Below are positions 81 to 1,419 of a stretch of DNA of 10,325 nt, piece after piece. Each line of letters starts with the position of its first letter. The first letter of the stretch is position 1. The notes below the pieces were generated by a model, which did no database searches, was not told the DNA's origin, and saw only the letters and a program-made list of their open reading frames with translations. The DNA comes from a virus (Duplodnaviria > Heunggongvirae > Uroviricota > Caudoviricetes), in IMG/VR virus record IMGVR_UViG_2706794669_000004; one strand, written 5' to 3'. The translations under genes and the position numbers were made by a program.

Positions 81-1328
81 TTAACTGATCGGCATTACAC
101 CACCGGGACGCGGATTCATATCTTCCAGGTCGCGGCAGTCATTGGAAGAGTAAATTCCCCAGTTGATCCCGGTGGCGTAGGCTTCAAAACGGGACTTCAT
201 ATCCCCGCGCAGTAACGCCCCGGCGTTAAATTTGGCGTAATAAACGCCCTGCTTACTTTTTCGTACCAGTCCGGTGTTGATCCGCTGTTCGATGCGGGTC
301 AGATACGGCACCAGTGAATAGTTGATAAATCCCAGCCCCAGCTCTTCGATATTGTTGAAGGTGGCGCGATCGGTGTTCTGCACCATGTGCAACGGCACCC
401 GGAACAGACGACAGATTTCTTCCAGCTGAAACTTGCGGGTTTCCAGGAACTGACTGTCCTCGGCGTTCAGCGCCATCGACTTCCAGTCCAGCCCCATTTC
501 CAGAATCATCGGGCGGTGAGCATTGCCAAGCCCCGTGTGACACTCCTCAAAATCTTTCTTCAGACGCTCGTAAGCATCCGGCGTGAGCTTTTGTTCCGTA
601 CGCAACACACCGGATGTCACCGCACCATTACTAAACAACCTGGCACCGTGCTCCTCGGTTGCCGCTGCCAGTGAAATGGCCTCACGCGCATACGCAATGG
701 GATTCAGCCCGACAAGTCCATCCAGCGTCAGGGTGCGCACATGCCAGATTTCATTCTGGGTCAACACATCCACGGAACCATCCGGAAACGTCACCTGATA
801 AACCGGCTGCCACTGGCTGTTCAGCTTCGGTTCCACACAGCCCGGATCTATCGGAAGAAGCTCCACCACTTCTCCCAGTGCCTTTACCTTGTAGGCGTAA
901 AAATTCCCCCGTAGACACAGGCAGACAATAACCAGCTCCCAGAATTCCTGCGGTGTCATGTAGCCATTAGGTTTTGCCGAAACCAACTTATGCAGTCGTT
1001 CATCCACCGCCCGTGTTTTCAGGGTACCGCTGATTTTGTAGAGACTGCAGGGCAGCATACCAACAGACTCTGCCAGCACCCTGACGCAAGAATAGACCGC
1101 CGTCAGGCGCATGGCCCGCTGGCTACTGATCCGCTTTCCGGTATAGGTGTCGTATGACAGCCCGATAGCATCAGCAGTTCTGCTGGCGTGGTCACCGGCA
1201 CATCGCTTTTTCGTTGAAATAATCCCGAAAAGAACACTATTTACCTCCGCCGACAGACTGCCGTGTACGGTCGAGATATCGCGCCACCAGCCACGACCAG
1301 AACAGGCACAGCGCCCCGGCAACAACAA
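81..1328 (-). CDS. Phage portal protein, HK97 family
   Basis: 415-aa ORF directly downstream of terminase large subunit; conserved portal-like segment [21 protein letters not shown] near the N-terminus. Start uncertain: codon at 1328 is TTG and no ATG/GTG occurs in frame until 1112 (M73), which would cut into the conserved region. Confidence 0.85.
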
Positions 1329-1419
1329 AACCCGCCGGGGGATAAATCAGCCAGGCACCATACGCCAGCAAAAGCGCACCCAGCACGCCCACCAGAGGCG
1401 CGAGAATCAGCATGATCAT
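1237..1419 (-). CDS. Hypothetical small membrane protein (60 aa, two predicted TM helices) between terminase and portal
   Basis: ATG at 1419 preceded by GAGGT 5 nt upstream; product [60 protein letters not shown] is strongly hydrophobic. Overlaps the extended portal ORF out of frame, so it could instead be a GC-rich shadow ORF. Confidence 0.4.

Follow-up and report, generated by a model that had tools for sequence, protein, structure and literature searches.

The closest described relatives of the gene analysed here are YmfR of the e14 prophage of E. coli K-12 (UniProt entry YMFR_ECOLI, b1150) and the phage proteins L37 of P27, Sb3 of ST64B and gp03 of SfII ("membrane protein"); the gene is also annotated in SfI. 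The members in e14, P27, ST64B and SfII are practically the same gene as the one reported below (60 aa, ~95–98% identical), occupy the same slot between the genes for the terminase large subunit (terL) and the portal protein, and have the same TAGTG junction with the latter. The gene itself shows no significant difference from these members; what differs is the adjoining portal gene, which in our DNA is frameshifted and cut by an IS4 element and in the e14 prophage (beeE) is truncated in another way. In the searchable literature the name ymfR was found solely in lists of genes, in tables of strain deletions and in a single transcriptome table; no experiment on YmfR was found, nor any small membrane protein that had been characterised from a gene between those for terminase and portal. 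When an SOS-inducing drug was applied, the mRNA of e14 ymfR increased (log2FC 4.5) along with the mRNAs of further e14 genes (PMC10012262).

Other phages too have a small gene in this slot. PHROG 7105 and the 53-aa ORF of SfV likewise represent a two-helix small protein whose gene overlaps terL at its stop and portal at its start. This protein aligned with a YmfR-like alignment at 91% probability (hhalign) and matched phrog_502 at E 6e-6, but its sequence is much more distant and the portal paired with it is 28% identical. The SfV ORF is unannotated in RefSeq, where the portal start was seemingly drawn through it. The gene for gpW of phage lambda resembles ymfR in position only, being a gene of ~60–70 aa between terL (A) and portal (B). 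gpW is a soluble head-completion protein, whereas YmfR is strongly hydrophobic (GRAVY 1.16) and gave no gpW Pfam hit. Some phage records call the ymfR ORF "head-tail joining protein W", a label that looks like a positional mis-annotation.

Here a stretch of 10,325 nt (the window; IMG/VR virus record IMGVR_UViG_2706794669_000004) was analysed around a small ORF lying between terL and a portal reading frame (Table 1). We conclude, with a probability of about 0.8 for the explanation as a whole, that this ORF represents ymfR, a real gene of P27/ST64B/SfII/e14-type phages that had been named before, that GTG 1237 is the true portal start, that the portal gene has been killed by a 1-nt deletion and an IS4 element, and that the reading frame extending up to TTG 1328 does not code.

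Table 1. Features of the terL–ymfR–portal region (window coordinates)
Feature	Position	Strand	Basis or remark
End of IS4 element truncating the portal gene	1..99		Last 400 nt of the window identical to loci L005-L008
Frameshifted body of HK97-family portal gene (pseudogene)	100..1175	minus	PF04860, E 3.3e-107; TIGR01537, E 3.2e-78
Site of 1-nt deletion (one G of CTGGC), frameshift at portal codon 21	1175..1176	minus	Alignment to four relatives
True portal 5' end, GTG 1237-1235, 20 codons + 2 nt to the deletion	1176..1237	minus	Start annotated here in relatives; G1237 shared with ymfR stop (TAGTG)
ymfR CDS, 60 codons + TAG	1237..1419	minus	YmfR / PHROG 502 family; predicted inner-membrane helical hairpin
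Portal Shine-Dalgarno sequence GGAGGT	1243..1248	minus	Inside last ymfR codons (...G-G-G-K); 5 nt before GTG 1237
YPPAG turn and predicted TM helix 2, codons 26-47 (P28, G30, G35)	1279..1344	minus	Hydropathy; AlphaFold
Predicted TM helix 1, codons 2-25 (G11, G14, G21, W23)	1345..1416	minus	Hydropathy; AlphaFold helix 2-25
ymfR Shine-Dalgarno sequence GAGGT	1424..1428	minus	Read from the sequence; 4 nt 5' of ATG 1419
terL, terminase large subunit, 577 aa	1431..3164	minus	PF03354 and PF20441; phrog_9; upstream of ymfR

The small ORF and the YmfR family

On the minus strand an ORF of 60 aa ran from ATG 1419–1417 to TAG 1239–1237. The gap between the terL stop (TAA 1433–1431) and this ATG was 11 nt and held the ribosome-binding site, and the arrangement of GAGG plus spacer was retained in diverged loci. 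A preliminary description of this DNA had noted a hydrophobic 60-aa ORF with a good ribosome-binding site between terL and portal, and all its statements on the sequence were verified. As the window contained 82 ORFs of at least 40 aa, the length of this ORF was by itself within chance; it was counted as a gene because of homology and conservation, not length. Its GC content by codon position (0.68/0.48/0.67) resembled that of terL (0.58/0.41/0.65).

The predicted product was identical to "protein YmfR [Shigella sonnei]" and matched phrog_502 ("membrane protein") at E 2.8e-28 (residues 1–55 against profile positions 3–57 of 58). Annotated ymfR was found in 1,162 E. coli genomes (matches covering at least 80% of the query), and among E. 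coli genomes and phages it was labelled "ymfR: protein YmfR" or "membrane protein". Homologues at E ≤ 1e-3 numbered 166, and a profile search yielded 399 clusters, with proteins mostly of 50–70 aa. Sequence searches of Pfam, NCBIfam, PADLOC and PDB with YmfR gave no family or structure, PHROGs alone giving one, and a Pfam scan gave nothing beyond weak membrane-protein noise. The presence of ymfR is thus common and already annotated, and the gene itself is already known; the earlier remark that a membrane protein in a head operon is "unusual" holds as to function but not as to presence.

The ymfR ORF was intact, with 59–64 aa, in Mangrovibacter, Scandinavium, Serratia, Citrobacter and other loci. 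Among diverged relatives (dS of at least 1, synonymous sites saturated) its dN/dS by the Nei-Gojobori method was 0.1–0.5; compared with the portal gene, the value for ymfR (~0.25) was well above that for portal (0.03–0.11). In 120 family representatives sharing <50% identity, six residues were conserved: G14 (97%), G21 (98%), W23 (84%), P28 (84%), G30 (90%) and G35 (95%). In the phages of E. coli and Salmonella, dS of ymfR was 0.04–0.15 versus ~0.8–2 in the flanks, and the ymfR DNA was nearly invariant within this group; this DNA forms a conserved recombination joint in all four phages compared. Because of this joint, invariance within the group is uninformative on coding selection. Low synonymous divergence was therefore rejected as evidence of selection, which was judged from distant lineages only.

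If the small ORF were an untranslated chance or shadow ORF, its length would be unremarkable among the many ORFs of the window, and the recombination joint alone could account for the DNA conservation among E. coli-type phages. Such a reading is very improbable, since length and residue pattern are kept where synonymous sites are saturated, the members checked among the profile clusters lie at the same location, and the ribosome-binding site is conserved. The preliminary description had expected a shadow ORF to be disrupted by stops in relatives while the portal frame stayed conserved up to 1328; the outcome was the opposite, the small ORF being kept open and none of the relatives conserving the portal frame to 1328.

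Start and decay of the portal gene

In the frame of the portal body (81..1328), the only ATG, GTG or TTG among the first 80 codons were the TTG codons 1–3 and the ATG codon 73. The earlier observation that neither ATG nor GTG occurs from TTG 1328 to codon 73 was thus verified in this frame. Two alternatives had been drawn from it: either the portal gene has a non-ATG start and shares ~90 nt with the small ORF, or the portal start was drawn too long and the small ORF is genuine. The second was essentially right and the first was wrong, as the portal genes of relatives start at the position matching 1237 and overlap the small gene by 1 nt.

The cause of the long open frame, which the preliminary description had no means of seeing, was apparent in the alignment, in which the window read GAACT-GCTGAT and four relatives read GAGCTGGCGGAT. 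This 1-nt deletion was the sole gap over 1,352 nt aligned to P27, and re-inserting one G gave a portal ~97% identical to that of P27 over 380 residues. A sequencing error behind the frameshift was rejected, because the identical sequence was present in eight independent assemblies. The apparent upstream extension of the portal gene arises because the deletion at 1176/1175 shifts the frame: what stays open as far as TTG 1328 merely continues the shifted portal body out of frame and is non-coding. Owing to the missing base, GTG 1237 lies in a third frame in the window. Two codons upstream of this GTG, the intact portal frame contained a TAA, so that an upstream extension of the portal is impossible. 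Distant loci kept the portal N-terminus MFF(S/P)G(L/M)F and used ATG as the start.

There remains hardly any probability for a portal gene that begins at or near TTG 1328 and has ~90 nt in common with the small ORF; on that reading the small ORF would be either another gene, overlapping the first, or a shadow ORF. It is true that in the window no stop interrupts the portal-body frame from 1328 onwards, and that this frame offers no ATG or GTG before codon 73. But the four relatives have one extra base at 1176/1175 and start their portals at the GTG overlapping the ymfR stop; distant relatives use ATG at the same spot and retain the N-terminus MFFPG(L/M)F; a single inserted G gives back a P27-like portal; and the 30 extra codons have no counterpart in any intact portal. 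The TAA two codons before the start also meant that the two frames were not both open across relatives, leaving the earlier idea of an overlapping gene unsupported.

The other end of the portal gene was also lost. Homology to the P27 portal stopped at window position ~100, corresponding to codon ~380 of 413. In loci L006, L007, L010 and L012 the portal fragment was directly followed by an IS4-type transposase (PF13006 and PF01609), and the last "portal" codons (VMPIS and the stop) come from the inverted repeat of this element, which takes away the last ~33 codons of the gene. We take the element to be IS4 from these Pfam hits and from the IS4 terminal repeat. No intact portal reading frame from the family start to the stop was found in the window, where the gene is a pseudogene. 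The portal gene is dead in this decayed Shigella prophage remnant, and ymfR in the window is most likely an intact relic without a remaining partner.

Position of ymfR in the terL–portal module

Of the diverged loci, 12 had a terL that could be recognised upstream, and every one of these showed the order terL, ymfR, portal. Among eight remote profile hits, seven showed the corresponding placement (terL, X, portal) with an HK97-type portal, the usual order in remote loci being HNH, terS(P27), terL, X, portal, protease, capsid. Sequence identity of YmfR tracked that of the portal more than that of TerL (partial rank correlations 0.62 vs 0.37). For example, loci L024 and L026 were 37% identical in terL, 91% in portal and 68% in YmfR.

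No sigma-70-like promoter and no intrinsic terminator belonging to ymfR was found in a simple consensus scan of the coding strand over 900–1900. The annotation of SfII puts a "putative terminator" inside the ymfR gene, which was unsupported by the scan here. Instead of standing apart as a transcription unit, ymfR was packed closely between its neighbours, and neither sporadic presence nor atypical composition was seen: none of the related modules examined lacked the gene or had it at a different site, and its GC content was terL-like. The suggestion that it might be a moron was thus not borne out. ymfR is not a moron but a fixed member of the terL–portal module.

In most loci the stop of ymfR and the start of portal overlapped by one base, as TAGTG, TAATG or TGATG. 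All diverged loci had a purine-rich GGAGG, GGGGG or AAGG at the position equivalent to the portal Shine-Dalgarno (SD) sequence of the window. The conserved C-terminal GG[EKD]/KGD of YmfR results from the portal SD being encoded there; dipeptides compatible with an SD occurred within the last 6 residues in 47% of representatives vs 5% in a control stretch. An RNA structure hiding the portal SD until ymfR is translated was rejected, the single-sequence folds being no better than shuffles (z = 0.6, -0.05), and a consensus fold of the junction from 13 sequences had an energy of about zero, with no conserved RNA structure for coupling by hairpin opening. As hairpin opening was unsupported, any coupling would be by termination–reinitiation. 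In intact phages, ymfR would be translated off the late polycistronic mRNA via its own GAGG site; ribosomes terminating at its stop may restart at the overlapping portal start, aided by the GGAGG in the last codons, and portal synthesis would thereby be coupled to ymfR translation. From this arrangement we infer that ymfR is a translationally coupled part of the terL–portal module. The co-inheritance of ymfR and portal might also be no more than a result of the shared stop/start and SD, which leave recombination little chance of parting the two.

The same junction would be explained if ymfR were mainly a translated spacer that feeds ribosomes to the portal gene, whose GTG start is weak, and fixes the ratio of terL to portal, its peptide being incidental and discarded. 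In favour of this, the overlap of one base and the SD within ymfR are both conserved, the SD and not protein function accounts for the C-terminal GG[EKD], and dN/dS of ymfR exceeds that of the neighbouring genes. Against this, the six conserved residues lie far from the junction and are kept in 84–98% of representatives in spite of their low overall identity, and the two-helix hydrophobic design is universal in the family, which is not expected of a mere spacer. We regard a spacer function as improbable.

The predicted membrane hairpin and its possible roles

YmfR of the window contained two hydrophobic stretches (residues 1–25 and 29–46) with YPPAG between them, and all its charged residues (R47, D50, R51, R53 and K60) were in the C-tail. 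The AlphaFold model was a helical hairpin (H2–25 and H27–57, pLDDT 74). A fold search with this hairpin against viral models gave no match at E ≤ 0.001, the hits being generic helical hairpins only. The protein fitted the membership pattern of the family, namely ~60 aa, two hydrophobic helices, a (Y)PPAG turn and the six conserved residues. Over the representatives, the mean net charge was +0.8 in the N-segment, 0 in the loop and +1.1 in the C-tail. The predicted topology was compatible with two TMDs, N-in/C-in, with a charged C-tail, a pattern generic for small hairpins. YmfR is thus predicted to insert into the inner membrane as a hairpin, with the N-terminus and the basic C-tail in the cytoplasm and the YPPAG turn of 4–5 residues at the periplasmic face. 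Conservation of the glycines G11, G14, G21 and G35 suggests tight helix packing.

A real membrane protein in this position could also be unrelated to the portal, acting as a late effector in lysis timing (holin- or antiholin-like), superinfection block or perturbation of the host membrane. YmfR resembles class II (two-TMD) holins in its size, two predicted TM helices and short basic cytoplasmic tail, although small hairpin proteins in general would fit such a description. The PHROGs category of phrog_502 is "moron, auxiliary metabolic gene and host takeover", and HK97-type capsids are not known to need a membrane step or factor. However, ymfR lies outside the lysis cassette (window lysis genes at 4170–5128) and never adjoins lysis genes, and relatives have a separate holin (PF04971) by the lysozyme gene. 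The protein matched no holin Pfam model and no PADLOC model, and the Met1/Met3 "dual start" of the window YmfR is unconserved in the family. The lack of an own promoter or terminator, the strictly constant position in very distant phages and the co-variation with the portal are also unlike what such an effector or a moron would show. An effector role independent of the portal is accordingly unlikely, although better placed than the spacer.

The link to the portal may point to another kind of role. In T4, portal initiation is membrane-bound and requires gp40 (PMC9958956). A functional analogy with gp40 and the T4 portal protein gp20 is possible, in that YmfR may be a membrane-associated factor for a portal initiator at the inner membrane; T4 belongs to another head lineage, and no homology is claimed. 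By this analogy our guess, offered as a tentative one with the odds somewhat against it, is that YmfR acts with the portal at the membrane, e.g. by helping the initiation of the portal ring or the prohead. The wider proposal is more doubtful still, about on a par with the effector role: that YmfR/PHROG 502 and its sister PHROG 7105 are a core accessory of HK97-type head modules that has gone unrecognised, a stop/start-coupled inner-membrane hairpin that would bind or position the portal or the terminase–portal complex at the membrane.

For the window, the start-codon puzzle is resolved: in a dead Shigella prophage, a small gene that was already known precedes a portal gene that has become a pseudogene, and there is no long overlapping gene. 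For this phage group an annotation rule follows, in which the portal start is the ATG or GTG that overlaps the stop codon of the small hydrophobic ORF; in at least one reference genome, that of SfV, the rule is seemingly broken by leaving out the small ORF and placing the portal start too far upstream. For the family, a predicted membrane protein of 60 aa stays tied to the portal gene even in distant phages, which puts at issue a possible membrane-linked step of HK97-type head assembly or packaging. If the wider proposal is true, prohead initiation or DNA packaging in phages with PHROG 502 or 7105 would be membrane-associated, as in T4.

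Identity of the small ORF

All genes in the terL–ymfR–portal part of the window lay on the minus strand. Hydrophobic residues 1–25 and 29–46 of the small-ORF protein flanked a YPPAG turn, charged residues were confined to the C-terminal tail, and AlphaFold, with a 21-sequence alignment as input, predicted a helical hairpin (pLDDT 74). With 82 ORFs of at least 40 aa in the window, the length of this ORF alone was not beyond chance.

Features of the window discussed in the text
Feature	Position	Strand	Remarks
End of IS4 element	1–99		inserted in portal gene
HK97-portal frame	TTG 1328 to 81	−	PF04860, E 3e-107; TIGR01537, E 3e-78
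Conserved joint, ~360 nt	1492–1134		terL 3′ end, ymfR, first ~100 nt of portal
Small ORF (ymfR)	ATG 1419 to TAG 1239–1237	−	60 codons
GAGGT	1428–1424	−	within 11-nt gap between terL and small ORF
terL	3164–1431	−	PF03354 and PF20441
Small terminase, P27 family	3161–3664	−	TIGR01558
HNH endonuclease gene	3777–4127	−	directly upstream of small terminase gene and terL
Rz-like gene	4170–4646	−	158 aa; PF03245 in sister loci
Rz1-like ORF	4232–4414	−	60 aa; lipoprotein signal (…LVVVGC)
IS2-like (IS3-family) piece	5149–5780		632 nt
'InsC'-type orfA	5197–5607	+	intact, within IS2-like piece
Four tRNA genes	6214–6524	−	Gly-TCC, Thr-TGT, Arg-TCT, Met-CAT

The protein matched PHROG 502 ('membrane protein') end to end (E 2.8e-28); searches of Pfam, NCBIfam, PADLOC and PDB gave no match. 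A 701-nt region around the ORF had matches in 1,600 of 5,426 complete E. coli genomes. Among the listed matches covering the ORF it was labelled 'ymfR: protein YmfR' ('hypothetical protein' in three rows), and its flanks in the listed E. coli matches were 'terminase large subunit' and 'phage portal protein'. A database entry identical over all 60 aa is named 'protein YmfR [Shigella sonnei]', and its cluster includes UniProt YMFR_ECOLI. The same gene is L37 of phage P27, Sb3 of ST64B, a 'membrane protein' of SfI and SfII, and ymfR of the E. coli K-12 prophage e14. Judged by sequence, the small ORF belongs to YmfR/PHROG 502 and shows every family feature that could be checked, and ymfR is already known as a gene. 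Some phage records carry the label lambda gpW, but this identity was rejected; a holin was rejected by gene context and by profile.

The portal start and decay of the prophage

The preliminary description had offered two choices, a portal starting at TTG 1328 and overlapping the small ORF by ~90 nt, or a real small ORF and a portal start annotated too long. Its sequence details were correct. ATG, GTG or TTG occurred in the first 80 codons of the portal frame only as TTG codons 1–3 and ATG codon 73. In P27, E. coli UPEC129 and e14, the annotated portal CDS took the final base of the ymfR stop as its first base; in the ST64B record it started three bases earlier, at an in-frame ATA. When aligned with these four, the window was one base short at 1176/1175 (GAACT-GCTGAT versus GAGCTGGCGGAT), the sole gap across 1,352 nt aligned to P27. 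Portal codons 1–20 were in one frame from GTG 1237, which ran to a stop at 1103 (a 44-aa ORF), and the remaining portal gene was in a second frame that happened to be open upstream to TTG 1328. Re-insertion of one G gave a protein that matched the P27 portal at ~97% identity across 380 residues. Any upstream extension was precluded by a TAA that precedes the GTG by two codons in the correct portal frame. Sequencing error was ruled out as the source of the deletion, since eight independent chromosome assemblies with identical YmfR had exactly the same sequence there; gene callers had found only a 343-aa portal fragment in them.

A second break was seen at window ~100 (codon ~380 of 413), where portal homology stopped at the inserted IS4 element. 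The IS4 transposase directly followed the portal fragment in sister assemblies, and no head or tail genes were among the called genes downstream, where they appear to have been lost. Thus the portal is a pseudogene, the 90-nt overlap is its artefact, and the start puzzle is explained; a long overlapping gene pair was rejected. These comparisons showed that the portal begins at a GTG or ATG overlapping the ymfR stop, and in the window ymfR is most likely an intact relic that has lost its partner. In contrast to the supposed portal overlap, the Rz1-like ORF, nested out of frame in the Rz-like gene and resembling with it an Rz/Rz1-type spanin pair, would be a genuine embedded gene.

Phage SfV (L120, NC_003444) had the same terL type as the window and differed in its portal (28% identical). 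Between the two genes was an unannotated 53-aa two-helix ORF (2167–2328), matching phrog_7105 (E 3e-22), phrog_502 (E 6e-6) and, by hhalign, a YmfR-like alignment (91%). The annotated SfV portal (2270–3544) runs from GTG 2270 through this ORF. The SfV protein resembles the N-terminus of the P27 portal only from residue 17 (GTG 2318) onwards, so the annotated start looks ~16 codons too long.

The IS2-like piece replaced 441 nt, including most of the holin gene, present in otherwise identical sister assemblies (L005, L007 and L009), indicating that the window's prophage copy was further decayed than theirs. A cluster of the four tRNA genes separated the Q antiterminator region from the lysis genes. 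In Shigella flexneri SFBU0723 a second ymfR copy (L022, 2501–2716) was frameshifted after codon ~27, with a 71-aa product; ymfR pseudogenes therefore do occur in decaying prophages.

Conservation and gene context of ymfR

In E. coli and Salmonella phages ymfR DNA was almost invariant (dS 0.04–0.15, versus 0.8–2 in the flanks). A sliding comparison (flanks 100–2930) revealed a mosaic window, with a UPEC129-like terL (98–100% identity) and a P27-like portal (95–98%), meeting in a ~360-nt segment of at least 93% identity in P27, ST64B, UPEC129 and the window. This segment has the appearance of a conserved junction at which packaging and head modules recombine. The invariance of ymfR reflects this shared junction and is not evidence for coding constraint, and selection was judged on distant loci (Mangrovibacter, Scandinavium, Citrobacter, Serratia and others). 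There the ORF was open, at 59–64 aa, and ymfR dN/dS was 0.1–0.5 where dS was at least 1, versus 0.03–0.11 for the portal. A YmfR profile run against 1.84 billion representatives detected 399 clusters at E ≤ 1e-3, nearly all of 50–70 aa. Residues G14 (97%), G21 (98%), W23 (84%), P28 (84%), G30 (90%) and G35 (95%) were kept across 120 clusters with less than 50% identity to each other. Named and conserved across relatives, ymfR was shown to be a real gene, as the second choice had supposed. That it might serve as a translated spacer with an incidental peptide is improbable; the pattern of conserved Gly, Trp and Pro residues speaks against it.

Twelve diverged loci had a recognisable upstream terL, and each showed the terL stop, 11–25 nt with GAGG, and the ATG of ymfR. 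In every one, the ymfR stop and portal start shared one base (TAGTG for the E. coli group, and either TAATG or TGATG in the others), and the final ymfR codons held a purine-rich Shine–Dalgarno (SD) sequence (GGAGG, GGGGG or AAGG). Because the portal SD is embedded there, the C-terminal GG[EKD]/KGD of YmfR is conserved; SD-compatible dipeptides were present in the last six residues of 47% of family representatives, versus 5% in a control stretch. Of eight distant members of the family (E 1e-8 to 2e-5), seven lay between TerL and a PF04860 portal, the eighth contig being too short to tell, and the usual order was HNH, Terminase_4, TerL, X, portal, protease, capsid. The HNH–terminase packaging module of the window was of this usual kind. 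On a short metagenomic contig (L118), tandem small ORFs (24–206 and 219–404; 60 and 61 aa) preceded what is probably a fragment of a portal gene; the latter ORF belongs to the YmfR family, and the pair may be a duplication.

YmfR identity tracked portal more than terL identity (partial rank correlations 0.62 and 0.37, 16 loci); between loci L024 and L026 identity was 37% for terL, 91% for portal and 68% for YmfR. The earlier suggestion of a moron was not borne out, as a simple consensus scan of the coding strand showed neither a promoter nor a terminator for ymfR, and its composition was not atypical.

Possible role of YmfR

The gene would be translated from a late polycistronic transcript, and YmfR would insert into the inner membrane as a two-helix hairpin with a cytoplasmic basic tail. 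Mean net charge across representatives (+0.8 ahead of helix 1, 0 for the turn, +1.1 for the tail) is consistent with an N-in/C-in hairpin under the positive-inside rule. Ribosomes terminating at ymfR would re-initiate on the portal start, a weak GTG in this clade. A conserved RNA hairpin was sought at the ymfR/portal junction and not found, so coupling would be by termination–reinitiation, not unmasking.

A literature search found no experimental work on YmfR. The only evidence of expression comes from a transcriptome table, where the e14 ymfR transcript rose together with the remainder of e14 upon treatment with an SOS-inducing compound (PMC10012262). Our guess, at a probability of about 0.3, is that YmfR and the portal cooperate at the membrane; the only precedent cited is the membrane-bound, gp40-dependent portal initiator of T4 (PMC9958956). 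A late membrane effector acting independently of the portal is an unlikely alternative. The remaining interest lies in a small predicted membrane protein that is tied to HK97-type portals even in distantly related phages.
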